A stretch of DNA of 63,642 bases, counting the filler, from Nemertoderma westbladi (lineage: Eukaryota; Animalia; Xenacoelomorpha), in NCBI GenBank assembly GCA_032718475.1. It is 3 parts of 3 records of this genome, joined end to end, with 100 filler letters (N's around TTAATTAATTAA, not from the genome) between each part and the next. Parts side by side here need not be neighbours in the genome. Positions count along the whole stretch, not along the records: positions 1 to 25,394 come from JAUCBJ010005939.1; 2 more parts are not named here. One strand, 5' to 3'. Below the pieces are notes generated by a model that saw only the letters and a list, made by a program, of their open reading frames with translations, made no database searches and was not told where the DNA came from. Below are positions 452 to 57,704 of the stretch, one piece after another. The position numbers and the translations under genes are program-made. Position 1 is the stretch's first letter. The number at the start of each line of letters is the position of its first letter.

Positions 452-1035
452 TTTGTAATTTTTTTAAATATTGCAACCCCACTTCAAATATTGAATTTTG
501 AGCCAGATATGATGCCATATTACGTATGGTACCGGTAGCTGACAGACCCTGTTTATACAATTACTACTCTGCTACTGTACTATGATATGGCGAAACTGCT
601 GAACTGGATTGTGATGCCCCTTACTAGCTTATGCCTGTAGAAAATAAAATAAAATAGGCCTAGTTTTGAAAAAGTAAAGTTTTTTGTAAAATTCCCTGAA
701 ATATCAGTGTTTTCCCACGGAGACCGGCTAGTAGGCCTAACTGAATTTTGAAAAAAAAGTCTGAGTCTTTTCCCAGAATCCAGAAAGACCTGTTTTCGAG
801 CAAAAAAATTATATCCACAGGTACGGATTTGTGACATTACCCGCAATACTGCTACTGCTGTACTGCAATACAGCAATAGACTGGCAGGACTGGTAGAGGT
901 ACCGGTACCACTTAGCGGTCTGCTGACTTATTGTAGACTGTAGGTACAATTTTATCTTACAGTAATTCTGTGTGGAGCAGTGTAGTCGATGTCGGTACCG
1001 TATTGAGATGTCAATGCTTGGTCGACAAGGACAGT

Positions 1036-1041
1036 ATGTCG
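1036..1041 (+). CDS. NXT1: Putative first coding micro-exon (Met-Ser) of the NXT gene
   Basis: acagtATGTCG|gtaagt: ATG with -3 A and a perfect phase-0 donor; joining to 2285 gives MSNNFTEVVEQCCLAAEEF, matching the length of the NXT1 N-terminus ([20 protein letters not shown]). An alternative in-frame ATG exists at 2204. Confidence 0.5.
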
Positions 1042-2284
1042 GTAAGTTTTTTTTTATGTTCGGGCTCACTGTCACTGCAGCACTGGCAACTGCTGAACTG
1101 GCTGTACTGCTGTACTGCCAGACTGCAGTAACTCTCTGACTGTGTGTCTAGCTACCGGTACTGTACACTGTCTGACTGTAGGCCTATGCCTGCCTATCAG
1201 TTATAGGCCTAGTTAATTAGTTTAAGTTTATTTAATTAATTAATAATATTTAAAAAATTATATTATTAACAAATTAATAAGTTTAATTAAATAAATGGAT
1301 TTCTTTTTTAATTACGGGTATTACATGAACAATGTAAATTGATATTTACTAGGCCTAAACTCCGCACTCCGGTCTGTGAGTAAAAACATATACTGGTAAA
1401 ATATTCAGATATTAATGTAGCACAGGCTGACAGGGTATCACAGTATCAGTCTCTACCTGTCTACGGTCAGACGGATACGCGGTATCTTCAGCGCTCTGTG
1501 GGGTCTCCTTGAGTTTGTTGATAGCAGCGAGATTTTGTTGACCACTGTTACAGTTGTCCCATTGGTTCCTCCATTGGCTTTGGCTATCATTTCGGTGATT
1601 TCGATTGGTTTCGCCTCTTTCCACATCCAACTAACGATGTGGGTCTGGCTCTGGGTGCTCAAAGAGGCCGCCTGGAGAAGGTCCCGCCGTCGTTAGGATG
1701 GAAGCGGCATTATCTACGAGAATGGCTATACCGGTAGGCCTACCTTTTACCGATTCGTTGTAGAAGGAACCGGTGACTCGCGGTGAGAGCGGGGTTCGTG
1801 GGGAACTCTCTGCAGACGGGAACCAATCTCATGGAGGAAGTTGGAGGTCTCCGGGCCGGGGCGACCCAAGGTTTCAAAGGCCACTGGGACGGGATGGAAG
1901 ATGTGGCCTCACTCATCACCTCGTTGTAGGTGGTATTTTGCCACGTTCTGCTCCCTCCACGGTGCGCCCTCCAGCAATTAGCGTCTGGTGCAAATGGCTT
2001 GGTGCCATAAGTGTAATTAATGAAATAATGGTCAAAATTCCGCTAAATTGCTTAGATTATGATATGAATTAGGGTTCAGGGTGCAATGGTCTGATGGTTA
2101 GGCAGTTAGGGTTAGGGTTACATGACAGTTTTGATTAGGGTTGTGGACTGGGACTCGGGACTGCAGATAACGGTAGGCCTACCGGTATAAAATATATTCA
2201 GAAATGATGAAAAAATTTCAAGTTGGCATGTGTCAAAGTAATTATTCTACCGTTTACTGGTTTATTTGTATTACGTCGTTACAG

Positions 2285-2374
2285 AATAACTTTACGGAGG
2301 TAGTCGAACAATGTTGCCTAGCTGCTGAAGAATTCTCAACGATATTTTATGAAACTTACGATCAACGTCGTCAT
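2285..2374 (+). CDS. NXT1: NTF2-related export protein (NXT/p15), coding exon 2
   Basis: ttacag|...|gtaagt, 90 bp, phase 0; translates NNFTEVVEQCCLAAEEFSTIFYETYDQRRH, resembling NXT1 '[24 protein letters not shown]'. Confidence 0.9.
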
Positions 2375-2595
2375 GTAAGTTAATCTGACTTTATTATGTT
2401 ATTGGTAATGAGTCTAGGGGGTCATTCAGACATTGGAGGCTGAGAGGGTACTGGTAGAGCGACTCCAAATGATGGATTTCTTTCCCAAATTGCTTTTAGG
2501 ATGTTGGGGGTTTCATTGAATTACGGCGACACTATCTGACTATTAAGGGATATTGTGTATCATTATATAATAATTTAGCGCTTTATCCGTTTCAG

Positions 2596-2751
2596 TTGTT
2601 ACACAAGTTTTACACCGCCGACGCTTCGGTTATTTGGTGCGGCAATAAGGTTGCCAACGGTGGATTGAGTAAGTTCCTGGAAGCTCTACCCCCTTCCACA
2701 CACACACTGTTTACGTTGGATGCCCAACCGGTATCCAAAGAGATTACTGAG
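2596..2751 (+). CDS. NXT1: NXT/p15, coding exon 3
   Basis: tttcag|...|gtcagt, 156 bp, phase 0; LLHKFYTADASVIWCGNKVANGGLSKFLEALPPSTHTLFTLDAQPVSKEITE resembles NXT1 'LLSRLY...LVWNGN...FFEMLPSS...DCQPV'. Confidence 0.9.
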
Positions 2752-2926
2752 GTCAGTAACGTGTGATTGTAACCAATTAATATTGTTATTAATTAATTAG
2801 AGCCAGTCAAATAATCTATTCTGTAGAAAATGTTTCATTATTATATTGACCTGTCTAGCGAACGGCTAGATGTATTATATTGACCTTTAATGACCCATAT
2901 TCTTGGTTATGTATTTTACTTACGGA

Positions 2927-5678
2927 CCTACTACACCCACGAACCATCCTACCAGAAGTGTCTCCCTGCTACACCCACGAACCATCCTACCAGAAGTGTC
3001 TCCCTACTACACCCACGAACCATCCTACTACAGTGTCTCCCTACTACACCCACGAACCATCCTACTACAGTGTATCCCTACTACACCCACGAACCATCCT
3101 ACCATAAGTGTCTCCCTACTACACCCACGAACCATCCTACCAGAAGTGTCTCCCTACTACACCCACGAACCATCCTACCATAAGTGTCTCCCTATTACAC
3201 CCACGAACCATCCTACTACAGTGTCTCCCTACTACACCCACGAACCATCCTGCCAGAAGTGTCTCCCTACTACACCCACGAACCATCCTACCATAAGTGT
3301 CTCCCTACTACACCCACGAACCATCCTACTACAGTGTCTCCCTACTACACCCACGAACCATCCTGCCAGAAGTGTCTCCCTACTACACCCACGAACCATC
3401 CTACCATAAGTGTCTCCCTATTACACCCATGAACCATCCTACTACAGTGTCTCCCTACTACACCCACGAACCATCCTGCCAGAAGTGTCTCCCTACTACA
3501 CCCACGAACCATCCTGCCAGAAGTGTCTCCCTACTACACCCACGAACCATCCTACCAGAAGTGTCTCCCTACTACACCCACGAACCATCCTACTACAGTG
3601 TCTCCCTACTACACCCACGAACCATCCTACCATAAGTGTCTCCCTATTACACCCACGAACCATCCTACCAGAAGTGTCTCCCTGCTACACCCACGAACCA
3701 TCCTACCAGAAGTGTCTCCCTGCTACACCCACGAACCATCCTACCATAAGTGTCTCCCTACTACACCCACGAATCATCCTACCATAAGTGTCTCCCTACT
3801 ACACCCACGAACCATCCTGCCAGAACTGTCTCCCTACTACACCCACGAACCATCCTACCATAAGTGTCTCCCTACTACACCCACGAACCATCCTACCAGA
3901 AGTGTCTCCCTACTACACCCACGAACCATCCTACCAGAAGTGTCTCCCTACTACACCCACGAACCATCCTACCATAAGTGTCTCCCTATTACACCCACGA
4001 ACCATCCTACTACAGTGTCTCCCTACTACACCCACGAACCATCCTGCCAGAAGTGTCTCCCTACTACACCCACGAACCATCCTACCATAAGTGTCTCCCT
4101 ACTACACCCACGAACCATCCTACTACATTGTCTCCCTACTACACCCACGAACCATCCTGCCAGAAGTGTCTCCCTACTACACCCACGAACCATCCTACCA
4201 TAAGTGTCTCCCTATTACACCCATGAACCATCCTACTACAGTGTCTCCCTACTACACCTACGAACCATCCTGCCAGAAGTGTCTCCCTACTACACCCACG
4301 AACCATCCTGCCAGAAGTGTCTCCCTACTACACCCACGAACCATCCTACCAGAAGTGTCTCCCTACTACACCCACGAACCATCCTACTACAGTGTCTCCC
4401 TACTACACCCACGAACCGTCCTACCATAAGTGTCTCCCTATTACACCCACGAACCATCCTACCAGAAGTGTCTCCCTGCTACACCCACGAACCATCCTAC
4501 CAGAAGTGTCTCCCTGCTACACCCACGAACCATCCTACCATAAGTGTCTCCCTACTACACCCACGAACCATCCTACCATAAGTGTCTCCCTACTACACCC
4601 ACGAACCATCCTACCATAAGTGTCTCCCTACTACACCCACGAATCATCCTACCATAAGTGTCTCCCTACTACACCCACGAACCATCCTGCCAGAACTGTC
4701 TCCCTACTACACCCACGAACCATCCTACCATAAGTGTCTCCCTACTACACCCACGAACCATCCTACCAGAAGTGTCTCCCTGCTACACCCACGAACCATC
4801 CTACCATAAGTGTCTCCCTACTACACCCACGAACCATCCTACCAGAAGTGTCTCCCTGCTACACCCACGAACCATCCTACCATAAGTGTCTCCCTACTAC
4901 ACCCACGAACCATCCTATCATAAGTGTCTCCCTACTACACCCACGAACCATCCTACCATAAGTGTCTCCCTACTACACCCACGAACCATCCTACCATAAG
5001 TGTCTCCCTACTACACCCACGAACCATCCTACCATAAGTGTCTCCCTACTACACCCACGAACCATCCTACCAGAAGTGTCTCCCTGCTACACCCACGAAC
5101 CATCCTACCAGAAGTGTCTCCCTACTACACCCACGAACCATCCTACTACAGTGTCTCCCTACTACACCCACGAACCATCCTACTACAGTGTCTCCCTACT
5201 ACACCCACGAACCATCCTACCATAAGTGTCTCCCTACTACACCCACGAACCATCCTACCAGAAGTGTCTCCCTACTACACCCACGAACCATCCTACCATA
5301 AGTGTCTCCCTATTACACCCACGAACCATCCTACTACAGTGTCTCCCTACTACACCCACGAACCATCCTACCATAAGTGTCTCCCTACTACACCCACGAA
5401 CCATCCTACTACAGTGTCTCCCTATTACACCCACGAACCATCCTACTACAGTGTCTCCCTACTACACCCACGAGCCATCCTACTACAGTGTCTCCCTACT
5501 ACACCCACGAACCATCCTACCAGAAGTGTCTCCCTATTACACCCTCGAACCATCCTACCAGAAGTGTCTCCCTACTACACCCACGAACCATCCTACCAGA
5601 AGTGTCTCCCTACTACACCCACGAACCATCCTACCAGAACTCCCTACTACACCCACGAACCATCCTACCATAAGTGTC
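2927..5678. repeat. Minisatellite, 37/38-bp unit (CCTACTACACCCACGAACCATCCTACCAGAAGTGTCTC), about 73 copies, in NXT intron 3
   Basis: Visible tandem array; variant pattern recurs at a 794-bp offset (e.g. ORF starts 3184/3978 and 3297/4091). Confidence 0.97.
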
Positions 5679-5684
5679 ATAAGA

Positions 5685-6310
5685 TGCCCAGTCCCCTTCC
5701 GAATCGATGGCGGAAGTCCAGTTCCCTTTCGATTCAAAGGCGGACGTCCGGTTACCTTCTGATCGACGATGGATGTCCAATTCCCTTCCAAATCGATGGT
5801 GGAAGTCCAGTTCCCTTTCGATTCAAAGGCGGACGTCCGGTTACTTTCTGGATCGACGATGGATGTCCAATTCCCTTCCGAATCGACAGCAGACTTCCAA
5901 TTATCTTCCGAGTCGACGACGGGCGTCCGGCTCCCTTCTGAATCATCGGCCAATGTCCAGTTCCCTTCCTCATCGACAGCGGACGTCCGGTTCCCTTCCG
6001 AATCGTCGGCCGATGTCCGGTTCCCTTCTTTATCAACAGCGGAAGTCCGGTTCCCTTCCGAATCGTCTACTGATGTCTGGTTCCCTTCCTTACCGACAGC
6101 GAATGTTCGGCTCCCTTCCGAATTGACTACGGACGTCTGGTACCCTTCTGAATCGACAAAGGACGCCAACTTTCCTTCGGAATCGACAGCGGACTTCCGG
6201 CTCCCTTCAGTATCAATGGCAGACATGCGGTTCCCTTCCAAATCGACGGCAGATGTCCGGTTACCTTCAAAGTCAACGGCAGATGTCCGTTTCCGCCCCA
6301 AATTGATGGA
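5685..6310 (+). repeat. Degenerate 30-bp repeat encoding FPSESTADVR-like decapeptides
   Basis: About 20 diverged units within ORF 5769-6632; the peptide repeat is retained despite nucleotide divergence. Confidence 0.85.
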
Positions 6311-7604
6311 GGATGTCCATTTATCTAAGTTCCCATCACCATCAATGGAAGAAGATGCACTGTTAAATCTATCCAACATTACACCGATTTACAGTTCATC
6401 AAGTAGGTCTCCATATATTCCCCAAGGTCGCACAATAGGTAAGCAGCCACAGAGGAAATGTTCAACCAAAGTCTTAGTTGAAGATCTCAATGAGGAGGGA
6501 AAATGGGTTAAAAGAGCAAATACAACAACCCCTAATGCCAACAGCACCAATAATATTCAAAATGAAGAGGAATACATCCATGTCTACCCTGATATCGGCG
6601 TTATAGGCGGTATATATATATATAGGCGGTAACCTACATATCAGCGGTATGCAATATTTCAATAACACCATTAATTTTATTTCCTGACTGTGATGGGACT
6701 CATTTCGTTCTTCACGTTGCGGATACAACTGAAAGGAGAGTATACACTCTATGCAGTCTAATGCAATCTAAATCAACTACTCCAATAAATTATAAACTGT
6801 GCAGATTATTAAATCTAATTGACAAAATCAATGGCAGTACTCGGGAGAATTGGTGTGTAACAAGTCATACATCGGAATATCCACAACAGAGTACATCAAA
6901 CTACTATGACTGCTGGGCCTATGTTTGTTTGTATGCCCAAGTCCTTAGTGAAGGAGAGCCTGTGCCTCAAATTCATAGTAACAGTTATGAATTGCGGAAG
7001 TGGATCAAATCATGTCTAGAAAATGTAAAGGTAACCAAACTTTCCGATGTTACGAGTAAACCTCAAGTACACAAAAATGAGATTAAACTTATAAGTATTA
7101 AACAACCAGATAATATTAATAAACATGTAAAGAAGGAGTCCTTCGGAACTCCACTAGACTATACAACAATATATGAAGTCATGCAAAGACCAAGGAATGA
7201 GGTAATAACATTAATTTCCACATTGACAGAGAAACAAAGAGAAGCGACAAGTAATGGACTCAATGACAAAATAAAACACCTGATTTCCCCAACACAAGCA
7301 ATGACACTAAAGCTCAGGCAGCGAGGTTCCAAAAATGAATTAGCTATTGATATATATGAACTAATGCGATCAGTCTTTGAAAATTCTTTCACGGAACAAT
7401 GCAGGATGCGGTTCAAATATGAAGAACCATCCACAAACGGAGATGTGGTGTCACAGTTACGATCTGAGGTCTTGAGCTCAATCAGTTGTTTGCAAACAAG
7501 AATTTGTCAACTTGAAACAGATTACAATCTTTTGCAACAGGCCAATGAATTGTTGCATGCAGAGTTAACACGTTCGTGGGGACTTCGCGCAGCACGAGGC
7601 CTAG
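5769..7604 (+). mobile_element. Disrupted ORF with a Ulp1/SENP-like (C48) cysteine protease domain, probably transposon-borne, ending in a Helitron-like terminus
   Basis: The frame of ORF 6761 is open from 6626 and reads PLILFPDCDGTHFVLHVADTTERRVYTLCSL...PQQSTSNYYDCWAYVCLYA (C48 motifs P-x-N/D-x-H[WF] and PQQ-x-DC). TCGTG/CACGA hairpin followed by CTAG|T at 7601-7605. Confidence 0.6.
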
Positions 7605-7831
7605 TTATTATATACAAATTAAAATGCAGCGACTGTATCACAAAATCAGGTTTTGAGAAATTTACCCACACCACCAATCAATCAAAGAAAGGTGGACAGT
7701 ACGTGTTCACCCCTTTTAATCTCCCCCCCCCCCCCCCCCCCACCCTTCCCAACCACCAATACATAACCGCGACATCTACCACCCACGGAAGGGTAGCACG
7801 AACTTATTTCCAATCGCACGTTAAATATGCA

Positions 7832-8115
7832 AAGCCAGGTGGTTTATAGGAATATAATAAACGCAGTACTCGTTTTCATTATAAGCCTCTTTGCGTTCGT
7901 CCTGTTTTGTATTTAAATATATTTCTTAAACGCATGCTAGGACGATCTTTATAATAATAATAACTAGGGATGCGATCAATATGTGAAGCCAGGTGGTTTA
8001 TATAATAATTTAGTCAACGCAGTACTCGTCTACATTATATGCCTCGTTGCGCTCGTCGCTTGTCCTGTTTTGTCATAAAATATTTTTCCTAAACGCAGAC
8101 TGACGATCTTTATAC
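7832..8115. repeat. Diverged tandem duplication, about 155-bp unit
   Basis: AAGCCAGGTGGTTTATA...ACGCAGTACTCGT...GTCCTGTTTTGT...GACGATCTTTATA at about 7832 and 7986. Confidence 0.8.
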
Positions 8116-8854
8116 AGTTATAACTATGCGAAGTTTCGAAACTGTGCGAGTAACTGTTGATACATCTATGTGGAGATGTGTGATATGTGGAGATGTGTGA
8201 TACAACGCCAACGCATCTTATGCCGATGTAGTAATATGGGTATTGAAATAATATTAAATCAATGTACACTCTTAAAGCTGCAGCGAAAAAATGTAGCTAA
8301 TTTCCTAGGTTACATATAAAATAATAATATTATTTTTAAGAACATTAATTTTACTACTTTGCAAAAATTCAATTAAAAAATAACCAGACATATACATTGT
8401 GGAATAAACTATTTCAGAAGCCTACAACAGCCATGCCATGGATTGTATTTATGTTATTATATCTGTCATTTAACTGAGATAGCAATAGTAGTAATAGTCG
8501 AACGGTTATGCGGCCCGTCCAGCCTATAATAAACACAATTCAGTGATTGGGCTGGAATAGCAATACTGGTAGCCTCTATTACAATTCCTCTCAGGTTATT
8601 CTACAGCCACAACTCCCAGCAGCTAGCTCCACACCAGCAGAGACTTGACCAATAATGGGAAGGATTAAATTTGTACTCAATAATTGTGCGGTTTAATTAC
8701 GTTTAGATCAATTAAAGAGACATTTATTAAAGCAAATCACTTAAACTAATTAAAAACTATAATAGAATGGCGTATGGGGATTATATCTGTATAATTTTTA
8801 AGTATAATTATTTAAATCTTATACTGTAAAACAATTAATTTCCTTTAAAAGGCA

Positions 8855-9110
8855 GGTTGAAAATGGCGTTTTCACCGCAATCAACTTAATTAACTAATTA
8901 ACTGCTATTATCTTAGCTTCTCGAAGGCCACACGGAAATTCTACTTGGAAAATTTCTAAACTTTTGCCAAACAACATGTGTACCAAGTTTGGATAGATTT
9001 CATCAAAGATTGGCCGAGTTATTAACGTTTAAAATTGAACACGACAGAACGACAGGTTGATTAATGGTACCACTACGCTAAGGCTCACTCACTTCGTGGC
9101 TCGCCCCACA
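8855..9110 (+). mobile_element. Possible non-autonomous Helentron/HINE-like fragment
   Basis: TGTACCAAGTTT motif, GACAG-type microrepeat and a GC-rich terminal segment (CTCACTTCGTGGCTCGCCCC); pattern recognition only. Confidence 0.3.
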
Positions 9111-9119
9111 CATGAACGA

Positions 9120-10607
9120 CATATTCGAATGATTATACAAGAAGACATATCTGCAAATTAATAAAACCAATTTAGGAATCGAAAATAGAAAAAGTACCAA
9201 GGTACAAGGCTCTACTCCACCACAGGCACGCAGTGCTCAACAATCTACAACAATTAAGGAAGTCACAACAGATATTGGCAACGAAGACAACTATTTAATA
9301 TTGGAAGAAACAACAATGTCAGACTCATCATTGGATTTAAACTCCAAATTTAGAATACAATCAAAAAGGGTTAGAAATAAAAATAGAAAGAAACATAATA
9401 CGAGGGCCTCGGCACGCCCCTGGCCGAGGCCTGGGTGGCCTGGTAGACCTGGCCTCGGTGGCCCCTGGGTCCACACAAATTCCCACACTTCACGAGTGGC
9501 TACAGGTAACAGGTTCAAAGTATTGGAAACGGCAAATGTAAATGAAATGGAGAACGATGGTAACACATTGAATACTAATTTAAAATCTCAAAACATTAAA
9601 GAATCGCATAAAGATATTGAAGGACAGGAAAATAATCAAGAACAAAAGATGCAATGGATGCCAAAAAATGAAATTCCAACTGATACAAAGGAATGGAAAA
9701 CTAAAATGATAGGAAACTCTATAGATGAAGTAAGTTTGATAACATTGGAGCAAACATTGTGTTCATCGTTCAAAACAGAATTAGATAGCTGTAATATAAA
9801 ACCAAATGTTCCTAATGAAGGGAAAACCCTAAAGAGGCCAGCCAAACAACAAGAATATCAATACCCTCAAAAGTATAATACTAACATAAAGAAGCAACAA
9901 GGATCAATGAACCCTATAACATAGTGCGGACTCACATAGATATGAGGCAACCCTTATAAAGGGGATACATAGGAAGTACAGTGAGGAGGACATTGTTGAT
10001 CACCTCCATAGAAATGGAATTCCAGTGTATAGAATTACCACTAGAATATATAATGACGCTAAAAACATGAAAGTTGTGGTTCGGAATAAATTTTCTGATA
10101 GTCTATTGAAGAAAAATCTCTTTGGAGATGGGATTGGAGTGGAGCGCTGGGATTATAAATACAACCATAAGCGCTCGAATGTAAGGCCACATTCCTAACA
10201 TTGAAGTAGCCCAAAAGGAGCCCAGAACAGAAAATCTAACAGAAACGGGCAATTGTAATACGAAATCAACTACTACAAATAAATCAACAAAAAAATCATT
10301 AAGGATTGGTACATTTAACTGTCATGGAATTATTGGAAATATGGAATACTTTAGAACGGTTTTAGGGAATCTGTATTTATTCGCAATTCAGAAACATTGG
10401 TTAGATGAACAAGAAAATTTTCACAGTGTATCCAAAAATATAGTGGACGACTTTCAAAGCATTTATACAGTGAGCGATAAGATGAGCTTAAGGAGGGGAG
10501 TAGGTGGTACAGCGCTCTTCTACAGGAATGGAATCTTTGGCAGTATAGTGGATGTTAAATCGGGAGATGACATATCAGGAATACGTACAACATACGGAAT
10601 ATTTTAA
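9120..10607 (+). mobile_element. 5' part of a CR1/L2-group LINE: ORF1 (frameshifted near 9920) plus start of ORF2 APE endonuclease, 3'-truncated
   Basis: ORF1 motif TGNRFKVL; RRM-like segment 9941-10198 (LIKGIHRKYSEEDIVDHLHRNGI...MKVVV...GIGVERW); APE start SLRIGTFNCHG...IQKHWL...GVGGTALFY. Confidence 0.75.
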
Positions 10608-11173
10608 CATCAATTAAATATTTTTTATTAATATCTGTTTGTTTTATATTGTACCGTCATTTTTAATTTGGACTTTTATTCTATTGATAAATAAATGCCA
10701 GTGCAACTGGTTTGCGCTCCTGTGCGCGAGTAAAAAAATATACCATATTTTTTTTGATTTTCATTGTTATAGCTGAAATATTTAACAAAATGTGTAAATT
10801 TTTGGCCAAAAATGGCAAAATCTGTTAAAATTTGGCCAAAAAATCAGTTTTTTTAAAAATAATTTCTGAACACAAACATTTATCAAAATTCTGGTAGTAG
10901 GATCGATTTACGATGTCATTGTGCACATATGATGAATTTAATAGTCCCCCCCCCCCCCCCCCCCCCCCATTAAAACGAGCTATAATATCAATAGAAATAT
11001 TTCAGCATGGCAAAAATCATTTTAAAACGATCAATAAATATAACTCGTATTATATTATTGAATATTGATACAAAATGTGTGCCATAGTTAGTTATGTAGC
11101 TCATTACAGCTCTATTTGGCTCTTCTCCTAGTAAAGCTAGTTTAATCGGTTTCGAATTCTTTATTTTATTTAG

Positions 11174-11332
11174 GGAGTTTCAACAATATTTGTAACTTGT
11201 GGCGGAAGTGCTAATTACCAAGGTCATCCGGTCACTGAGTTCAACGAGACATTCATTCTCACGAAGATCGATAACGTTTGGAAGATAATGAACGATTGTA
11301 TGCGACTGAGGAACATTCCTTCCTTGTCGTGA
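11174..11332 (+). CDS. NXT1: NXT/p15, terminal coding exon (complete protein about 136 aa)
   Basis: ttttatttag| phase 0; GVSTIFVTCGGSANYQGHPVTEFNETFILTKIDNVWKIMNDCMRLRNIPSLS* resembles NXT1 'TVLVVICGSVKF...FNQNFILT...VWKIASDCFR'. Confidence 0.9.
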   Translation, partial: GVSTIFVTCGGSANYQGHPVTEFNETFILTKIDNVWKIMNDCMRLRNIPSLS

Positions 11333-11338
11333 GTCGAT

Positions 11339-14029
11339 ATGTATTTGGTGTCCTGTAAAGGCCACCCCGGGGCCCTCAAGGTTCTAATAGCGGCCGAGTT
11401 GGCCAACCAGTCGGTTCAAGTTGATTGGCTAGAAGGTCCCGGTCACCGTGGCAACCTGAAACTCCGGGTGGATGGCGAGGTAATCTCCAGTAGCAACGCG
11501 GCTGTTCGGCTGTTACTGTCCGCGACTGGTGACGTCATTACCGACGACCTGCTGGAATGGGAGGCGGTTAATCTGTCGCCGGCAGTCCATCATTACGTCA
11601 CGGAATCATCGACCGCTAGAGGCGTATGTGCTGATACGGAGTCCCGACTTACTAACCTACTGACCGAGTTAGACTGTAGACTGTCCGCGTCCGGCCCCCT
11701 AGGTGTCCCTCTACCGGCCGCCACCGCGGTTCTCTGGCCGACTTTATTACCTCTGATCCATACGCCCTCTAGCGTTATCAACTGGAACGACTTCCCCGCC
11801 GTGTTGCCATGGTTTCGTTCTGTAGAAGCGAACGCGGCGATTAGCCGCGCCGTTTCTATGGTAACCGACGGTAACTCGGACGTAGTAACGCGGTGGTTGC
11901 TAATGGCGACGCCCAATCGGCTTCCCCCCATCGTGGCGGGGGTCGGTTCCCTAGCGACAGCCAATGAGCGCCGCGCCGCCGCGTTATCGGCGTGGGACTC
12001 CCCCGTAGCGCCCCCCAGCGACGGCCCCGCGCATCCCATCCTCCCGCGCCCAGACACTCGTAACGTCCTCGTCACCAGCGCGCTTCCCTACGTTAACAAC
12101 ATCCCGCACCTCGGCAACATAATCGGCTGCGTGCTGAGCGCGGACGCGTTCGCGCGGTACGCGCGGCTGCGCGGCTACACCACGCTCTACGTGTGCGGCA
12201 CCGACGAGTACGGGACGGCGACCGAGACCCGCGCCATCGCCGAGGGTCTCACCCCCGAGGCCGTCTGCCGGAAGTACGGCGCGCTGCACCGCGAGGTCTA
12301 CCGCTGGTTCCGGATCGCCTTCGACCACTTCGGTCGGACCTCCACGGCCTCCCAGACGGCCATCTCGCAGGGGATCTTCTGGAAGCTGCGGTCCCGCGGG
12401 TTCGTTACCGAGGCGGCCGTGGAGCAGCTGCGGTGCGGCGGCTGTCGGCGGTTCCTCGCGGACCGATTCGTCGAGGGCGTCTGTCCCAACTGCGGCTACC
12501 CGGACGCCCGGGGCGACCAGTGCGACAAGTGCGGCCGACTCATAAACGCGGTCGAGTTGAAGCAGCCGCGCTGCAAGTTGTGTTCTAGAACGCCGACGGT
12601 TGAGTCGTCGGACCATCTGTTTATCGATCTGAGTTCGTTGGAGGGTCGACTCGTGGACTGGTTCGAGGGCTCCTCGTCCCGCGGGATGTGGAGCAACAAC
12701 GCGAAGATGATAACGCGATCGTGGCTGAGTGAGGGGCTGAAACCGCGGTGCATCACTCGGGATCTCGTGTGGGGGACTCCGTGTCCGCTGCCCGGATACA
12801 CCGAGAAGGTGTTCTACGTGTGGTTCGACGCTCCCATCGGGTACATCTCCATCACGGCGGAGTACACGGAGGAGTGGCGACGGTGGTGGATGAACCCCGA
12901 GCAGGTCGAACTGTTTAACTTTATGGCCAAGGATAACGTCCCGTTCCATTCGGTTGTCTTCCCTTCCTGTCTCCTCGGCACCGGGGATTCCTACACCCTC
13001 GTCAACCATCTAGTCGCTACCGAATACCTCAACTACGAGGACGGGAAGTTCTCGAAGAGTCGAGGTGTCGGCGTCTTCGGTACCGATGCGATGGACACCG
13101 GGATCCCCGCCGACATCTACCGGTTCTATTTACTCGCGATTCGGCCCGAGAAACAGGATTCCTCCTTCAGTTGGGAGGATTTAGCGGCGAAAAACAACAC
13201 GGAACTTCTAAACAATCTCGGGAACTTCATTAATCGGAGTCTCTCGTTCCTCTATAACTCGTTCTCGGCGACTCTCGACGACGTTGAACTCGTCGAGGAA
13301 GATATCGATTTTATCGTCGGAGTGAACGCGGAACTGGCGGTTTATTTGGAGCTGATGGAGCGAGTTAAACTGCGGGATGGGTTGAGGGTCGTTCTCAGTG
13401 TGTCGAAGCTCGGCAACCAGTACCTACAGTCGGTACAGCCCTGGAAGTTAATGAAGTCGGAAACGGAGCGCGGGCGGGCGCGGTCCGCTGTCAGTCTGTC
13501 GGTCCATCTCGTCTATCTTCTGTCCGTTATGGTGAGTCCGTTCATGCCGGACACTTCGGATGAGATACAACGACAGCTGAACGCGACCGCGATGAGCGAC
13601 AGACTGCCGACTATGTTCCAGAAGGTTCTCCCGACGGGACATCGAATCGGTAAACCGAGGCCGTTGTTCGATAAGATTGAGGATGAGGATGTTGGGAGGT
13701 TGACGGGACGGTTCGGGGGTGCGGGAGAGCCGGAGGGGAAGGAGGTTGGTGTAACTCCGGTTAACCAAGTCGCTAACGTCGATATAGAGTCGCTAACTCT
13801 CGGAGATACACTGGAGGAACTTACCGACCGCGTTACGGGCCAGGGAAATAAAGTTCGGGAGATGAAAGCGAATAAATCGTCTAAGGAAGATGTAGACGCG
13901 GAGGTCGTTGTACTGAAGGCGCTTAAAGAACGTCTAGCGGCTCTGAAACCGCCAACGACGACAGATAATCCGGTTGAAGGGGTTGGGGGAGGAAAGAGTA
14001 AGAAAAAACACAAGAAGCATAAAAAGTAG
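11339..14029 (+). CDS. MARS1: Cytoplasmic methionyl-tRNA synthetase, intronless (GST-like N-terminus, class I core, anticodon-binding domain, WHEP, Lys-rich tail)
   Basis: 896-aa ORF with TSALPYVNNIPHLGN (HIGH), zinc-knuckle CxxC pairs, YVWFDAPIGY, KFSKS (KMSKS), NNLGNFINR and a C-terminal WHEP (QGNKVREMKA...AEV..LKALK). Confidence 0.98.
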   Translation: MYLVSCKGHPGALKVLIAAELANQSVQVDWLEGPGHRGNLKLRVDGEVISSSNAAVRLLLSATGDVITDDLLEWEAVNLSPAVHHYVTESSTARGVCADTESRLTNLLTELDCRLSASGPLGVPLPAATAVLWPTLLPLIHTPSSVINWNDFPAVLPWFRSVEANAAISRAVSMVTDGNSDVVTRWLLMATPNRLPPIVAGVGSLATANERRAAALSAWDSPVAPPSDGPAHPILPRPDTRNVLVTSALPYVNNIPHLGNIIGCVLSADAFARYARLRGYTTLYVCGTDEYGTATETRAIAEGLTPEAVCRKYGALHREVYRWFRIAFDHFGRTSTASQTAISQGIFWKLRSRGFVTEAAVEQLRCGGCRRFLADRFVEGVCPNCGYPDARGDQCDKCGRLINAVELKQPRCKLCSRTPTVESSDHLFIDLSSLEGRLVDWFEGSSSRGMWSNNAKMITRSWLSEGLKPRCITRDLVWGTPCPLPGYTEKVFYVWFDAPIGYISITAEYTEEWRRWWMNPEQVELFNFMAKDNVPFHSVVFPSCLLGTGDSYTLVNHLVATEYLNYEDGKFSKSRGVGVFGTDAMDTGIPADIYRFYLLAIRPEKQDSSFSWEDLAAKNNTELLNNLGNFINRSLSFLYNSFSATLDDVELVEEDIDFIVGVNAELAVYLELMERVKLRDGLRVVLSVSKLGNQYLQSVQPWKLMKSETERGRARSAVSLSVHLVYLLSVMVSPFMPDTSDEIQRQLNATAMSDRLPTMFQKVLPTGHRIGKPRPLFDKIEDEDVGRLTGRFGGAGEPEGKEVGVTPVNQVANVDIESLTLGDTLEELTDRVTGQGNKVREMKANKSSKEDVDAEVVVLKALKERLAALKPPTTTDNPVEGVGGGKSKKKHKKHKK

Positions 14030-14161
14030 CAGTTTATTCATTTAGCCGTCGCCGTTGTTTTATTGTGTTTTAGGTTGAACAATATTTCTTGTGTAACAGT
14101 TTTTCCTCCATTTGGTGTGAATTGTGTGTATCACTTGGTATTGATATTGTTATGAATTATT

Positions 14162-14167
14162 AATAAA
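14162..14167 (+). promoter_or_regulatory. Candidate polyadenylation signal for the MARS1 (and NXT) transcript
   Basis: AATAAA about 130 nt after the MetRS stop, followed by T/GT-rich sequence. Confidence 0.55.
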
Positions 14168-14348: not shown

Positions 14349-15256
14349 AACAACGAGTTGGAATCCCGCCGGATCTCCTTGTTCTACTTATACGGTGGGG
14401 TCCTATAGGGTTTCTGGAATCCCGCCGGGTCTCCTTGTTCTACTTATACGGTGGGGTCCTATAGGGTTTCTGGAATCCCGCCGGGTCTCCTTGTTCTACT
14501 TATACGGTGGGGTCCTATAGGGTTTCTGGAATCCCGCCGGGTCTCCTTGTTCTACTTATACGGTGGGGTCCTATAGGGTTTCTGGAATCCCGCCGGGTCT
14601 CCTTGTTCTACTTATACGGTGGGGTCCTATAGGGTTTCTGGAATCCCGCCGGGTCTCCTTGTTCTACTTATACGGTGGGGTCCTATAGGGTTTCTGGAAT
14701 CCCGCCGGGTCTCCTTGTTCTACTTATACGGTGGGGTCCTATAGGGTTTCTGGAATCCCGCCGGGTCTCCTTGTTCTACTTATACGGTGGGGTCCTATAA
14801 CAACGAGTTGGAATCCCGCCGGATCTCCTTGTTCTACTTATACGGTGGGGTCCTATAGGGTTTCTGGAATCCCGCCGGGTCTCCTTGTTCTACTTATACG
14901 GTGGGGTCCTATAGGGTTTCTGGAATCCCGCCGGGTCTCCTTGTTCTACTTATACGGTGGGGTCCTATAGGGTTTCTGGAATCCCGCCGGGTCTCCTTGT
15001 TCTACTTATACGGTGGGGTCCTATAGGGTTTCTGGAATCCCGCCGGGTCTCCTTGTTCTACTTATACGGTGGGGTCCTATAGGGTTTCTGGAATCCCGCC
15101 GGGTCTCCTTGTTCTACTTATACGGTGGGGTCCTATAGGGTTTCTGGAATCCCGCCGGGTCTCCTTGTTCTACTTATACGGTGGGGTCCTATAGGGTTTC
15201 TGGAATCCCGCCGGGTCTCCTTGTTCTACTTATACGGTGGGGTCCTATAGGGTTTC
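14349..15256. repeat. Homogeneous minisatellite, 56-bp unit (GGAATCCCGCCGGGTCTCCTTGTTCTACTTATACGGTGGGGTCCTATAGGGTTTCT), about 16 copies
   Basis: Near-identical units in two blocks, each opened by AACAACGAGTT (14349 and 14799). Confidence 0.97.
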
Positions 15257-18075: not shown

Positions 18076-18083
18076 ACTTTTGT

Positions 18084-21000
18084 AATACTTTTTTCTTTGA
18101 TCCAGTTAGCTATCGGTTATTGTTTGTATTACATTTTTCTTTGATCCAGTTAGCTGTATGTTATTGTTTGTATTACTTTTTTTTTGATCCAGTTAGCTGT
18201 CTGTTATTGTTTGTATTACTTTTTCTTTGATCCAGTTAGCTGTCTGTTATTGTTTGTATTACTTTTTTTTTGATCCAGTTAGCTGTCTGTTATTGTTTGT
18301 ATTACTTTTTCTTTGATCCAGTTAGCTGTCTGTTATTGTTTGTATTACTTTTTCTTTGATCCAGTTAGCTGTCTGTTATTGTTTGTATTACTTTTTTTTT
18401 GATCCAGTTAGCTGTATGTTATTGTTTGTATTACTTTTTTTTTGATCCAGTTAGCTGTCTATTATTGTTTGTATTACTTTTTCTTTGATCCAGTTAGCTG
18501 TCTGTTATTGTTTGTATTACTTTTTCTTTGATCCAGTTAGCTGTCTGTTATTGTTTGTATTACTTTTTCTTTGATCCAGTTAGCTGTCTGTTATTGTTTG
18601 TATTACTTTTTCTTTGATCCAGTTAGCTGTCTGTTATGGTTTGTATTTACTGTTTTTTGATCCAGTTAGCTATCTGTTATTGTTTGTATTACTTTTTCTT
18701 TGATCCAGTTAGCTGTCTGTTATTGTTTGTATTACTTTTTATTTGATCCAGTTAGCTATCTGTTATTGTTTGTATTACTTTTTTATTTGATCCAGTTAGC
18801 TATCAGTTATTGTTTGTATTACTTTTTATTTGATCCAGTTAGCTATCTGTTATTGTTTGTATTACTTTTTTATTTGATCCAGTTAGCTATCAGTTATTGT
18901 TTGTATTACTTTTTCTTTGATCCAGTTAGCTATCGGTTATTGTTTGTATTACTTTTTTTTTGATCCAGTTAGCTGTATGTTATTGTTTGTATTACTTTTT
19001 TTTTGATCCAGTTAGCTGTCTATTATTGTTTGTATTACTTTTTCTTTGATCCAGTTAGCTGTCTGTTATTGTTTGTATTACTTTTTCTTTGATCCAGTTA
19101 GCTGTCTGTTATTGTTTGTATTACTTTTTCTTTGATCCAGTTAGCTGTCTGTTATTGTTTGTATTACTTTTTCTTTGATCCAGTTAGCTATCTGTAATGG
19201 TTTGTATTTACTGTTTTTTGATCCAGTTAGCTATCTGTTATTGTTTGTATTACTTTTTCTTTGATCCAGTTAGCTGTCTGTTATTGTTTGTATTACTTTT
19301 TCTTTGATCCAGTTAGCTGTCTGTTATGGTTTGTATTTACTGTTTTTTGATCCAGTTAGCTATCTGTTATTGTTTGTATTACTTTTTCTTTGATCCAGTT
19401 AGCTGTCTGTTATTGTTTGTATTACTTTTTATTTGATCCAGTTAGCTATCTGTTATTGTTTGTATTACTTTTTTATTTGATCCAGTTAGCTATCAGTTAT
19501 TGTTTGTATTACTTTTTCTTTGATCCAGTTAGCTATCGGTTATTGTTTGTATTACTTTTTCTTTGATCCAGTTAGCTGTCTGTTATTGTTTGTATTACTT
19601 TTTCTTTGATCCAGTTAGCTGTCTGTTATTGTTTGTATTACTTTTTTTTTGATCCAGTTAGCTATCTGTTATTGTTTGTATTACTTTTTCTTTGATCCAG
19701 TTAGCTGTCTGTTATTGTTTGTATTACTTTTTATTTGATCCAGTTAGCTATCTGTTATTGTTTGTATTACTTTTTTATTTGATCCAGTTAGCTGTCTGTT
19801 ATTGTTTGTATTACTTTTTCTTTGATCCAGTTAGCTGTCGGTTATTGTTTGTATTACTTTTTCTTTGATCCAGTTAGCTGTCTGTTATTGTTTGTATTAC
19901 TTTTTCTTTGATCCAGTTAGCTGTCTGTTATTGTTTGTATTACTTTTTTTTTGATCCAGTTAGCTGTCTGTTATTGTTTGTATTACTTTTTCTTTGATCC
20001 AGTTAGCTGTCTGTTATTGTTTGTATTACTTTTTCTTTGATCCAGTTAGCTGTCTGTTATTGTTTGTATTACTTTTTCTTTGATCCAGTTAGCTGTCTGT
20101 TATTGTTTGTATTACTTTTTCTTTGATCCAGTTAGCTGTCTGTTATTGTTTGTATTACTTTTTCTTTGATCCAGTTAGCTATCTGTTATGGTTTGTATTT
20201 ACTGTTTTTTGATCCAGTTAGCTATCTGTTATTGTTTGTATTACTTTTTCTTTGATCCAGTTAGCTGTCTGTTATTGTTTGTATTACTTTTTCTTTGATC
20301 CAGTTAGCTGTCTGTTATGGTTTGTATTTACTGTTTTTTGATCCAGTTAGCTGTCTGTTATTGTTTGTATTACTTTTTCTTTGATCCAGTTAGCTGTCTG
20401 TTATTGTTTGTATTACTTTTTCTTTGATCCAGTTAGCTATCTGTTATTGTTTCTATTACTTTTTTATTTGATCCAGTTAGCTATCAGTTATTGTTTGTAT
20501 TACTTTTTCTTTGATCCAGTTAGCTGTCTGTTATTGTTTGTATTACTTTTTCTTTGATCCAGTTAGCTGTCTGTTATGGTTTGTATTTACTGTTTTTTGA
20601 TCCAGTTAGCTGTCTGTTATTGTTTGTATTACTTTTTCTTTGATCCAGTTAGCTGTCTGTTATTGTTTGTATTACTTTTTCTTTGATCCAGTTAGCTGTC
20701 TGTTATTGTTTGTATTACTTTTTCTTTGATCCAGTTAGCTGTCTGTTATGGTTTGTATTTACTGTTTTTTGATCCAGTTAGCTGTCTGTTATTGTTTGTA
20801 TTACTTTTTCTTTGATCCAGTTAGCTGTCTGTTATGGTTTGTATTTACTGTTTTTTGATCCAGTTAGCTGTCTGTTATTGTTTGTATTACTTTTTCTTTG
20901 ATCCAGTTAGCTGTCTGTTATTGTTTGTATTACTTTTTCTTTGATCCAGTTAGCTGTCTGTTATGGTTTGTATTTACTGTTTTTTGATCCAGTTAGCTGT

Positions 21001-21096
21001 CTGTTATTGTTTGTATTACTTTTTCTTTGATCCAGTTAGCTGTCTGTTATTGTTTGTATTACTTTTTCTTTGATCCAGTTAGCTGTCTGTTATGGT
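18084..21096. repeat. Minisatellite, 43-bp unit (TTGATCCAGTTAGCTGTCTGTTATTGTTTGTATTACTTTTTCT), about 70 copies
   Basis: Visible tandem array ending immediately before the GNAT exon. Confidence 0.97.
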
Positions 21097-21139
21097 TTTT
21101 ATTAGTGATCATATCATATTCATTGCGTTCTGGAATACA

Positions 21140-21994
21140 ATGGATATAAAATATCGAGTAGCAACAATGAACGATGTTGAAGAGATTTTAGAGTTAATGA
21201 AGAATTCATTTGTTACAGAAGAGCCATTGTGTCGCAGTGTAGGTACTGAATTATTTATTGTATTATATAAGTGCGCCCTCAAGCGATACGAAAACGCACA
21301 ATTAAAAACATGACAACAATTGTGCTTCCCTTAGTTATATAAAACTAAGTATTAATTGTTATTGTCTAATTATCTGTGTAGTGATATCTCATCGAATGAT
21401 TTCTATTATGCTATAAATAATTTATATATTTTTAAATTATTATTTGTTTAAGATTTTACCATGGAAACCACCGATGAATTCGAGCCAATCAGGAGGACTA
21501 CTGAGGATTCAGTGCTAAGCAACTTATCACTGGTTGCCATAGACACGGATAAAAATAAAATAATTGGTTTCCGATTGTCGGGTTCGGTGGAGAAGAATGA
21601 AAAGAAATCTGAAGACGACGGTCCTCCTATACCGGATAACTTGGCGCAAATCTACGAATTATTCGCGTTTATGCGGAAAGATATCAACTTCTTCGAGCGA
21701 TTCGGGGTCGATAAAATATTAACTTTCTTTGCGTTGAACGTCGATTCAGGTTACTCTGGGAGGGGGGTGGGGACCTCGTTGTCTAGTAAGTCTATGGAGT
21801 TGGGGAGGGAGGCTGGGTGTGGCGCCGTAACTGTCGAGGCGTCTGGAATCGGCTCCCAAAGGATTTACGAGAAACTGGAATTCGAAGTTTTTAAGGAAGT
21901 TGTATATGAAGATTATAGAGGGGCGGACGGGGAGGTCATATTTGGGAAAACTGGGGAGAATTTGGTGTGGAAATTATTGGGGAAACGTTTGTGA
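21140..21994 (+). CDS. GNAT-family arylalkylamine/dopamine N-acetyltransferase-like protein, exons 21140-21242 and 21453-21994, about 214 aa
   Basis: G|gtactg...tttaag|AT phase-1 intron joins ORFs 21092 and 21461 in frame; F-x-x-EEPL motif, acetyl-CoA motif A (LNVDSGYSGRGVG) and motif B (SQRIYEKLEFE), as in invertebrate AANAT-like enzymes. Confidence 0.9.
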
Positions 21995-22152: not shown

Positions 22153-23665
22153 TGCATTATGCATGCATTGTACTAACATTGCTCTGCATTATACATGCAT
22201 ACTAACATTGCCTTGCATTATACGCATTGTACTAATATTGCCCTGCATTATACATGCATACTAACATTGCCTTGCATTATACGCATTGTACTAACATTGC
22301 CTTGCATTATACGCATTGTACTAACATTGCCCTGCATTATATATGCATACTAACATTGCCTTGCATTATACGCATTGTACTAACATTGCCCTGCATTATA
22401 CATGCATACTAACATTGCCTTGCATTTGCATTATACACATTGTACTAACATTGCCTTGCATTATACGCATTGCACTAAAATTGCCCTGCATTATATATGC
22501 ATACTAACATTGCCTTGCATTATACGCATTGTACTAACATTGCCCTGCATTATATATGCATACTAACATTGCCTTGCATTATACATGCATACTAACATTG
22601 CCTTGCATTATACGCATTGTACTAACATTGCCCTGCATTATATATGCATACTAACATTGCCTTGCATTATACGCATTGTACTAACATTGCCCTGCATTAT
22701 ATATGCATACTAACATTGCCTTGCATTATACGCATTGTACTAACATTGCCCTGCATTATATATGCATACTAACATTGCCTTGCATTATACGCATTGTACT
22801 AACATTGCCCTGCATTATATATGCATACTAACATTGCCTTGCATTATACATGCATACTAACATTGCCTTGCATTATACGCATTGTACTAACATTGCCCTG
22901 CATTATATATGCATACTAACATTGCCTTGCATTATACGTATTGTACTAACATTGCCCTGCATTATACATGCATACTAACATTGCCTTGCATTATACGCAT
23001 TGTACTAACATTGCCTTGCATTATACATGCATACTAACATTGCCTTGCATTATACGCATTGTACTAACATTGCCCTGCATTATATATGCATACTAACATT
23101 GCCTTGCATTATACGCATTGTACTAACATTGCCCTGCATTATATATGCATACTAACATTGCCTTGCATTATACGCATTGTACTAACATTGCCCTGCATTA
23201 TATATGCATACTAACATTGCCTTGCATTATACATGCATACTAACATTGCCTTGCATTATACGCATTGTACTAACATTGCCCTGCATTATATATGCATACT
23301 AACATTGCCTTGCATTATACGTATTGTACTAACATTGCCCTGCATTATACATGCATACTAACATTGCCTTGCATTATACGCATTGTACTAACATTGCCCT
23401 GCATTATATATGCATACTAACATTGCCTTGCATTATACGCATTGTACTAACATTGCCCTGCATTATACATGCATACTAACATTGCCTTGCATTTGCATTA
23501 TACACATTGTACTAACATTGCCTTGCATTATACGCATTGCACTAAAATTGCCCTGCATTATACATGCATACTAACATTGCCTTGCATTATACATACATAC
23601 TAACATTGCCCTGCATTATACATATATGCATTGTACTGACTGATATTGCTCTGCATTATACATCT
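22153..23665. repeat. Minisatellite of alternating 29/30-bp units (ACTAACATTGCCCTGCATTATATATGCAT / ACTAACATTGCCTTGCATTATACGCATTGT)
   Basis: Visible 59-bp dimer periodicity. Confidence 0.96.
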
Positions 23666-25394: not shown

Positions 25395-25494
25395 NNNNNN
25401 NNNNNNNNNNNNNNNNNNNNNNNNNNNNNNNNNNNNNNTTAATTAATTAANNNNNNNNNNNNNNNNNNNNNNNNNNNNNNNNNNNNNNNNNNNN
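25395..25494. other. Artificial assembly linker N44-TTAATTAATTAA-N44
   Basis: Exactly 100 bp with a six-frame-stop 12-mer; identical to 55309-55408. Confidence 0.97.
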
Positions 25495-27411
25495 CACCCA
25501 TTCGACCGCCGAAGCGGGAGTCGCCAACGTTGTAGCGGGCGGACGAGGGACAACGGGCGACAAATCCGGAATATTTCGCTCGGGGTCCAGGACCTGAACT
25601 GTCGCCTGGGCAGTTCTACTGGGCACAGGTAGCTTAGTGCTATGTAGAGGGAATTTAGAAGTAGCTTCAGGGAGCACAGGTGTGTCTATCACCGAAGGGG
25701 TGATTTCAAGAACAGGCCTAATTATTTCAGGCTCATCTACTATAGTAGGGAGTCTTTCTATTGTAATTATTTGGTCTGTGGGCTCTGTACTACCTAAGTT
25801 GGTGTTATTTAGTTGCCTTCTAACAGCTGGAGGCAAATCAGGCAATTTCTGACGGTGGAATGTTCTTTTACGTCTGCTTAGGCGAGGTCGATTTCCTCCG
25901 CCTTCAGTGTCGGTGGTATCGCCTTCCTCAGATGATGTATACCCCTGTCTCTTGGGAGTAGATCGACTCATCATCTGCATATTGCTCGCTGTTAACTGTT
26001 TATTGAAGTTGTCTTGCTTCTCTTGAAGAATTTCCAACTCTAGTTGGGTTGCCTCTTCAGATGCCCTCCGTTCTGCTTCTACCACTGCCTCTGCTGTTGC
26101 CAGTGCCGCCTTTCTTTCTGCTTCGGCCGCTGCCTTTGCTGCTGCTACTGCCGCTTTTGCCTCTGCCGCTGCCACTGCCGCTGCCGCTTTTGTTTCTGCT
26201 TCTGCAGCTGCCACTGCTGCTGCTACTGCCGCTGCCTTTCTGTCTTCTATACGTTTTTTCTTTACTTGTTCTTCCTGGACCTTAACGACGCGGAGTTGTT
26301 CATCGAATTTAGCTTGATTAGCCGCTAACCTATCCACGTCGATGGCGTCAAGCACACGCTGTGCTCCTTCACTATTAGGGCTAAGTCCCTCTAGTCTTCT
26401 CCGCAACTCTTCATCACCTACAAAACGTTGATAGTCTGACAGATAGATGTCAATGGCATCCTTCTTATGCGGTTTCGCTGCCGTCGCTTCACTTTCCACT
26501 TGGGAAAAAGTAGCGTCTGTTGATTCTCCATGGGTTGAGCGCTCCTCCAACTGAGCTTTCCACTGAGCTGCTCCTTGAACCTGGCGACTCACCCGTTGAA
26601 ACCAAGTCTTTACGGCAACTTGCAACGACGTGTCTTGTTTTCTTTTAGAAGCCTCCTCAAAGGCGGATAAGATTAGCCTAATCCGCAGAACTCTTTCTCT
26701 AACTTGATAAAGCAGCTGTCCCTGCTCTTGAGGTCCTTGAGGTTGTTTAAACAGTTGTTTTTCTACTCGCTCCATAGAGCTGAAGAATCCCTGTGCGTAT
26801 CCGGCTGCGGACCTCTTCCACACAGCTGGATCGATGGTTTCCTTGGCTACTCCCATCCGGTGTATGTCTTCCCAGGCAGCTTCTGATAAATCAAACGGGA
26901 GTCCGGGTCCGGGGAAGTTCCATTGCGACTCGACAATAGACTTCAATTCTTCCCTCGTGTATCCCGCATAACTATCTCTAGTTGACCGTTGACTTCTCGC
27001 CCAATCGATCTGGTGTTCTTCCACCGCGATCAATAACCCAGCGAGCACGGCTGCAGGAAGGATGAGAAGGGGATCCGTATAAACCGCATCCGTCATCTCT
27101 GCTCCGCGCTCGGGTGTCAGCTCTACAGTATCCTCACTACTGGAGCTGCTGGGCCGCTGAGGAATAAGTTATTGACTAGCGGGTTGTTGCTGTTCCGCTG
27201 CCTTTTGGTCCCGCTTGACCTGAGCTCGAGTGCCTATGATAGACCTACGATGTTGGACCAGCCTAGGTTCTGTTATTACTACTGGAGGGATGACCTTCCT
27301 CACAGTGGGAGGTGAACTGGATTTACGACCAGACGGTTGTACGTCTCTGTCTGAGTCGCAGATAGTTACATCTAATAAACTGTCTGACAGGTTCTGCTTA
27401 GTATCAGACAT
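25495..27411 (-). CDS. Gag/ORF1-like protein of an LTR-like element, unknown family; one in-frame TAA at 27171-27169; truncated by the gap
   Basis: ORFs 27411-27169 and 27096-25495 are in the same frame, separated by one TAA plus 24 sense codons; Ala/Glu/Lys coiled coil then Pro/Thr-rich region; lies downstream of the LTR-like repeat. Confidence 0.55.
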
Positions 27412-55308: not shown

Positions 55309-55408
55309 NNNNNNNNNNNNNNNNNNNNNNNNNNNNNNNNNNNNNNNNNNNNTTAATTAATTAANNNNNNNNNNNNNNNNNNNNNNNNNNNNNNNNNNNN
55401 NNNNNNNN
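55309..55408. other. Artificial assembly linker N44-TTAATTAATTAA-N44
   Basis: Same structure as 25395-25494. Confidence 0.97.
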
Positions 55409-57630: not shown

Positions 57631-57704
57631 TTTCCTTCGTCGTCGGAGCCCCGGTTCACTTGAATCACCGCGCGCATTTCCCCCCGTCATCTTTGGAGCA
57701 TTTT

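Follow-up and report, generated by a model that had tools for sequence, protein, structure and literature searches.

A probable dicistronic locus in the xenacoelomorph Nemertoderma westbladi joins NXT and an intronless methionyl-tRNA synthetase

Dicistronic loci are uncommon but known in animals. FlyBase holds 159 dicistronic pairs, 45 of them exclusively so, with gaps of −34 to 319 nt between the two open reading frames (ORFs) (PMC4528330), and among the Drosophila loci there are gaps of 1, 2, 5, 8, 9 and 10 nt as well as short overlaps (PMC4528330, File S1), as in CG34314-Rad1 (1 nt), tectonic-CG42730 (2 nt), Gint3-CG42306 (5 nt) and CG33649-DNApol-gamma35 (4-nt overlap; PMC4528330). In human bicistronic mRNAs 50% of the downstream ORFs in 14 transcripts are intronless, and retroposition into an active unit has been put forward as a 'gene symbiosis' model for their origin (PMC13303939), while for RPP14-HsHTD2, CERS1-GDF1 and SNURF-SNRPN leaky scanning or reinitiation is presumed (PMC4705651). 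Operons resolved by trans-splicing are known in chaetognaths, tunicates and nematodes (PMC12460157, PMC2776167); PMC7896298 also belongs to this comparison literature, and the available portion of a xenacoelomorph paper (PMC11521371) mentions neither operons nor trans-splicing. How ribosomes gain access to the second ORF of animal dicistronic mRNAs is largely unresolved. Here we describe a locus from a 63,642-nucleotide stretch of the Nemertoderma westbladi genome (assembly GCA_032718475.1; the whole stretch is called the window, and all positions refer to it), in which the frame of a cytosolic methionyl-tRNA synthetase (MetRS) begins 6 nt behind the stop codon of an NXT gene and which is probably dicistronic. 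The surprise of the initial annotation at an animal mRNA that is not monocistronic was overstated in view of the 159 FlyBase pairs, the gaps of 1–10 nt and the intronless downstream ORFs of human transcripts.

The two ORFs are conserved, do not overlap and lie on one strand, as the FlyBase sense of a dicistronic mRNA requires. The stretch TCG-TGA-GTC-GAT-ATG at 11327–11341, already read correctly by the initial annotation, contains the NXT stop codon, the spacer and the MetRS start codon (Table 1). Both ORFs share one frame with two codons between them, which happens by chance in one of three cases and carries little weight alone. The junction is not misassembled, a doubt that had been raised at the outset, because contigs of an independent study cross it intact: the X2 record 14 contig covers 11058–13982 including the end of NXT intron 3, the junction and MetRS, and the X3 record 18 contig covers 11058–12505 (both X2 and X3 derive from a single sample of the same other study; the X1 contigs, a possible source of the window, were set aside for this check). 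Among the variants listed none falls into 11330–11341. The first AATAAA behind the NXT stop lies at 13847, where it had been placed by eye, followed by those at 13871 and 14162, and from the NXT stop up to 13847 there is neither AATAAA nor ATTAAA.

Evidence for a shared mRNA comes from X4, a single run represented by short-read k-mer contigs without strand or transcript ends. None of the runs is on record as RNA, and X4 is labelled 'DNA?'. Its splice joints alone revealed its RNA-like status, and it behaves like spliced RNA because its contigs join 1041 to 2285 and 2374 to 2596 at GT..AG borders and a loose end at 2752 reads as exon 4. A contig of 444 nt (963–1041, 2285–2374, 2596–2751 and 11174–11292) corresponds to fully spliced NXT, and the next one (11294–12332, 1039 nt) runs unbroken from the final 39 nt of NXT, with its stop codon, through the spacer into 994 nt of MetRS. 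At the lone base between them, 11293, X2 and X3 show a synonymous C/T variant, and we infer that the contig break at this position is an allele bubble. Contig depths are 1359 before and 1542 after the break and 1487–1959 further 3′; the contig tool discourages ranking by depth, and such similar values are consistent with one mRNA and weak as evidence. Read cover of intron 3 was examined at 2752–2930 and 10700–11173, and in the depth bin 11072–11195 the spliced contig explains 263.0 of a depth of 268.8. A MetRS promoter hidden in the NXT intron, one of the options offered by the initial annotation, is therefore unlikely, as the exon 3/4 joint is unbroken and there is almost no X4 depth in the intron just upstream. 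The absence of X6, X7 and X8 contigs from 560–2930 is not evidence of absence. Because the chain of spliced X4 contigs crosses the NXT stop into MetRS, it is likely that single mRNA molecules carry both ORFs; the one-mRNA proposal made from the sequence has thus gained support, in the form of short-read contigs from one run.

NXT encodes 136 aa in four coding exons, with all joints GT-AG and in phase 0. The three exons annotated at first were borne out; their count was one short, the first coding exon having only 6 nt. The exon 4 fragment matches the Pfam NTF2 domain below the cut-off (E 0.004). The predicted product shares 45% identity over 115 aa (E 9e-36) with P0136, for which NXT1/p15 gives the best PDB matches (E 1e-24, against 1e-6 for NTF2), so that by way of the relatives of P0136 it is of the NXT1/p15 type and not NTF2, and its length lies within the 135–140 aa of NXT1/p15 proteins. 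Intron 3 holds a tandem array of 73 units of 38 bp (2927–5678), an array of 30-bp units (5694–6294) and ORF remnants on the + strand (6626–7849, 9133–9924 and 10185–10607) that gave no significant Pfam match (best Ulp1-like, E 0.017) and are probably decayed mobile elements. X4 contigs inside intron 1 (1440–1599 and 1829–2150; high or moderate depth, some divergent) are probably transcribed repeats from elsewhere.

The second ORF encodes 896 aa with the Pfam domains of a cytosolic MetRS, namely the catalytic (243–634), anticodon-binding (653–795) and WHEP domain (828–870), whereas the GST-like N-terminus is matched by GST_N_5 below the cut-off (E 0.002). The motifs HLGN and KFSKS and four CxxC are present. 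The relatives listed show 55–61% identity, and the named ones are from animals and nearly all cytoplasmic MetRS. Since 11–16 residues precede the N-terminal anchor in 95 of 120 homologues (16 are gapped and 9 longer) and 13 precede it here, the native start is ATG 11339. With the N-terminal 240 aa as query, none of 5780 candidates proved to be a homologue. A quick tree built from the query and 38 of the 120 matches (39 rows) leaves MetRS unplaced on a long branch, its composition being biased. MetRS is under purifying selection: 13 of the 19 single-base variants listed are synonymous (pN/pS 0.15, P 7e-5) and the sole indel listed within the ORF, of 9 nt, keeps the frame. This shows that MetRS is used and does not show its separate translation from a shared mRNA. 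The C-terminal tail (about 13995–14026) is rich in lysine and histidine and by eye resembles a nuclear localisation signal. The ratio of observed to expected CpG is 1.2–1.3 in the coding sequences of NXT, MetRS and a GNAT acetyltransferase further along the window, without CpG depletion, which suggests little gene-body methylation.

MARS1 is a multi-exon gene in other animals. Here its intronless coding sequence sits within the intron-bearing NXT unit (three coding introns), as a captured retrogene would, and the GC content at third codon positions is 0.47 in NXT vs 0.72 in MetRS. It is likely that MetRS is an old retrocopy captured in the last exon of NXT, where in the simplest history it came to use the NXT promoter, the alternative being a loss of the MetRS introns in place after a rearrangement. 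Remnants of non-LTR (long terminal repeat) retrotransposons bearing RVT_1 lie on the − strand at 40997–44313 and 56627–57655, and such elements could supply the retroposition.

For the synthesis of MetRS we prefer reinitiation after the NXT stop on the dicistronic mRNA, a reading to which we give an even chance. One spliced mRNA would carry both frames, with the intronless MetRS frame inside the last exon of NXT, and ribosomes that stop at the NXT stop codon would restart at the nearby AUG 11339 to make a separate MetRS. The terminating ribosomes may be supplied by the 136-codon NXT frame or by two in-frame AUGs located 14 and 10 codons before the stop. The gap of 6 nt lies within the distance of viral termination-reinitiation, in which stop and start are at most 20 nt apart (PMC10275272). 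The MetRS AUG is preceded by nine others in the 490 nt from the main acceptor: the leader holds three, and NXT contributes its start and five internal ones. The five internal ATGs had been noticed before, and to them are now added those of the leader at 989 (a 5-codon upstream ORF ending at 1006), 1008 and 1014 (an upstream ORF overlapping the NXT start). A weak hairpin may end at the NXT stop: folding of 11295–11345, a segment picked after looking, gave z −2.2 (6 of 200 shuffles), and 11260–11345 gave z −0.9.

Several observations weigh against this reading. MetRS is in frame with NXT, whereas ORFs reached by reinitiation usually are not in frame with the first (PMC10275272). In cellular mRNAs reinitiation behind a long ORF is described as very rare, and for CASQ2 as about 82-fold below ORF1 (PMC5972666); so low an efficiency does not readily fit a housekeeping enzyme. 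UGGGA, the core of the viral termination upstream ribosome-binding site (TURBS), does not occur in 11174–11420, the nearest similar motif being UGGAA at −51. X4 is a single RNA-like run, and a k-mer contig across two genes does not show a single transcript. On the side of the origin, neither a poly(A) remnant nor a target-site duplication was found, with no A-tract or flanking repeat above 7 nt, as would be expected if the retroposition is old. Finally, NXT stood beside MetRS in none of 80 metagenome MetRS loci (best E 0.97); these loci are mostly non-animal as judged from the missing GST-like N-terminus and only seven of them have an animal-like one, and in one animal-like locus (L001) the 289 nt upstream of MetRS were without NXT.

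Reinitiation has to be weighed first against an operon, in which a minority of the transcripts is trans-spliced to a leader at an AG overlapping the NXT stop and the resulting monocistronic mRNA makes MetRS; we consider this unlikely. The AG, 5 nt ahead of the MetRS ATG, closes a pyrimidine-rich tract, and because of this acceptor-like site the acceptors upstream of NXT matter. Three X4 contigs start after AGs at 820, 943 and 962, with implied shares of about 14, 31 and 54% over a span of 142 nt (819–963), and the first of them begins with 30 foreign letters, as it would behind a leader of at least 31 nt. We infer that one 5′ sequence of at least 31 nt is spliced to the three alternative acceptors; it is either a spliced leader or an unseen upstream exon. 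The foreign letters may thus come from an ordinary exon, for which there is a donor-like site near position 20, and Rfam gave no match in the window. Moreover, the candidate acceptor at the NXT stop ends in GAG, whereas the other six of the unit (three confirmed by splicing and three upstream of NXT) end in CAG or TAG, and an mRNA for NXT alone would have no poly(A) signal. X4 passes 11334 unbroken, although a branch of 22% at 13063 was enough to break contigs, so that the trans-spliced form probably makes up less than a fifth of the RNA. MetRS mRNA is therefore not mainly trans-spliced and monocistronic; minor forms may occur, and trans-splicing at the NXT stop contributes little at most.

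A second group of explanations keeps the dicistronic mRNA and lets ribosomes reach MetRS by leaky scanning, by delayed reinitiation after the upstream ORFs of the leader as in GCN4, or by internal entry. Together these are distinctly unlikely. Leaky scanning accounts for algal bicistronic mRNAs (PMC11291117), and the contexts of the nine upstream AUGs are indeed poor, with G at +4 in none and T at −3 in five, the other four having a purine at −3. Scanning ribosomes would still have to skip all nine including the NXT start with its A at −3, and the depletion of out-of-frame AUGs (3 vs 5.4 expected, P 0.10) is not significant, unlike at the algal loci (PMC11291117). GCN4 ribosomes pass AUGs over 350 nt (PMC10275272), and the distance from the end of the 5-codon upstream ORF to the MetRS AUG is about 446 nt. 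Upstream of this AUG the folding of 11233–11341 is ordinary (z +0.5).

Two overlapping transcripts, with a MetRS start site inside NXT exon 4 and an NXT mRNA ending within the MetRS frame, are decidedly improbable. K-mer contigs would chain overlapping RNAs, the depth rises by about 13% across the junction, and many fly dicistronic loci have monocistronic isoforms (PMC4528330). Such an NXT mRNA would nevertheless have to end without AATAAA or ATTAAA, as none occurs before 13847, and neither intronic RNA cover nor an alternative first exon beginning at 11174 is seen. Moreover, a transcript that began in exon 4 before 11300 would keep an in-frame AUG with the same stop.

Readthrough of the TGA into an NXT-MetRS fusion of about 1035 aa, another option of the initial annotation, is disfavoured and very improbable. 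In its favour, the frame is shared across a spacer of two codons; as said, a shared frame arises by chance in one of three cases. The leaky stop context is UGA-C, whereas here a G follows, the structure downstream is ordinary (z −1.2), and a selenocysteine insertion sequence is absent in as far as Rfam gave no match. The ends of both proteins are normal. When longer NXT proteins were sought, 7992 scored candidates gave one match, of 392 aa and without a MetRS domain, which is weak evidence. That the locus is misassembled, or that MetRS is a dead retrocopy and a mere passenger of the NXT 3′ untranslated region, is largely refuted and hardly worth entertaining, since contigs of two other studies cross the junction and the 896-aa ORF is intact with its catalytic motifs, a pN/pS of 0.15 and only the in-frame indel, even if MetRS is intronless and the scaffold is rich in repeats with gaps elsewhere.

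Table 1. Features of the NXT-MetRS unit in window coordinates.
Feature	Position	Strand	Basis
3′ splice acceptor AG no. 1 (CAG)	819–820	+	X4 contig 821–973, first 30 letters absent from 560–2930
3′ splice acceptor AG no. 2 (TAG), inferred	942–943	+	X4 contig starts at 944, as where graph paths merge
3′ splice acceptor AG no. 3 (CAG, T-rich tract), inferred, probably the main one	961–962	+	444-nt X4 contig starts at 963
5′ leader with three upstream ATGs	963–1035	+	X4 contig start; sequence
NXT coding exon 1 (start codon and one codon)	1036–1041	+	X4 GT..AG joint 1041/2285
NXT coding exon 2	2285–2374	+	Gene model; X4 joints
NXT coding exon 3	2596–2751	+	Gene model; X4 joints
NXT intron 3 (8.4 kb)	2752–11173	+	Gene model; removed in X4 (matching loose contig ends)
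NXT coding exon 4, TGA at 11330–11332; exon runs on through MetRS	11174–11332	+	X4 contigs to 11292 and 11294–12332
Weak candidate hairpin up to the NXT stop	11303–11329	+	Folding vs shuffles
Putative acceptor-like stretch, pyrimidine tract and AG at 11332–11333	11311–11333	+	81% pyrimidine, ends GAG
6-nt inter-ORF spacer	11333–11338	+	Window sequence
Intronless cytosolic MetRS (MARS1 type), 896 aa, ATG at 11339–11341	11339–14029	+	One uninterrupted ORF, Pfam, motifs
AATAAA, likely poly(A) signal for the whole unit (predicted)	14162–14167	+	Sequence; X4 cover ends before 14048

Elsewhere in the window a two-exon ORF for a GNAT acetyltransferase of 214 aa is found at 21140–21242 and 21453–21994 (+), with an AAG acceptor and a possible earlier exon, which we take to resemble arylalkylamine N-acetyltransferase-like proteins. 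Tandem arrays flank or interrupt the genes at 88–452, 2927–5678, 14359–15256, about 18080–21100 and about 22160–23620. Paired runs of 44 N around 12 letters at 25395–25494 and 55309–55408 are a gap marker or filler, and an ORF of 573 aa on the − strand (25447–27168), without Pfam match, runs into the first of them.

The NXT-MetRS unit was not found in the literature searched, which omits most subscription journals. Its notable points are an essential large enzyme in second position behind nine AUGs and a possible spliced leader. That the animal draws its only cytosolic MetRS from the NXT mRNA, through efficient reinitiation past a 136-codon ORF without a viral-type TURBS, possibly together with unreported spliced-leader trans-splicing, is improbable as a whole. 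If true, the locus would offer a natural cellular system in which to look for the signal of reinitiation after long ORFs, and the product of MetRS could tune the synthesis of MetRS, as reinitiation needs initiator Met-tRNA charged by this enzyme. With an essential and abundant enzyme behind nine AUGs and 6 nt past a stop codon any mechanism must be efficient, and the junction is a clean substrate for reporters. Gene finders and longest-ORF pipelines would drop NXT or fuse it with MetRS.

Among the known systems, viral TURBS-dependent reinitiation (caliciviruses, influenza B) and the cellular cases CASQ2 and GAD share with NXT-MetRS the distance of at most 20 nt between stop and start after a long ORF; here there is no UGGGA, the ORFs are in frame and do not overlap, and the coupling is putative. 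The spliced-leader operons of nematodes, tunicates and the chaetognath Paraspadella gotoi likewise consist of close housekeeping genes on the same strand with acceptors before the first gene, but here the bulk RNA is not resolved at MetRS and the leader is only a candidate. RPP14-HsHTD2 also has a full-size housekeeping ORF first (RPP14, 124 aa) and a second functional ORF on the same mRNA; in contrast to this pair as well as to CERS1-GDF1 and SNURF-SNRPN the gap here is 6 nt and keeps the frame, and of the two ORFs the second is by far the larger. The exclusively dicistronic loci of Drosophila, whose mechanism is mostly unresolved, come close in combining unrelated genes on one processed mRNA with only a few bases between stop and start. 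They differ in the gene pair, in the 896-aa essential enzyme behind nine AUGs and in that monocistronic isoforms may exist here; in the 11 of 12 supplementary files of PMC4528330 that were searched there is no MetRS entry, and Nxt1 appears only in a list other than the polycistronic one. Human STREMI-SLC35A4 shares the small upstream ORF and the intronless downstream ORF, and whereas such vertebrate pairs have protein evidence and conservation across species and NXT-MetRS is known from sequence contigs, the latter extends the retroposition model of how bicistronic mRNAs arise by an invertebrate case.

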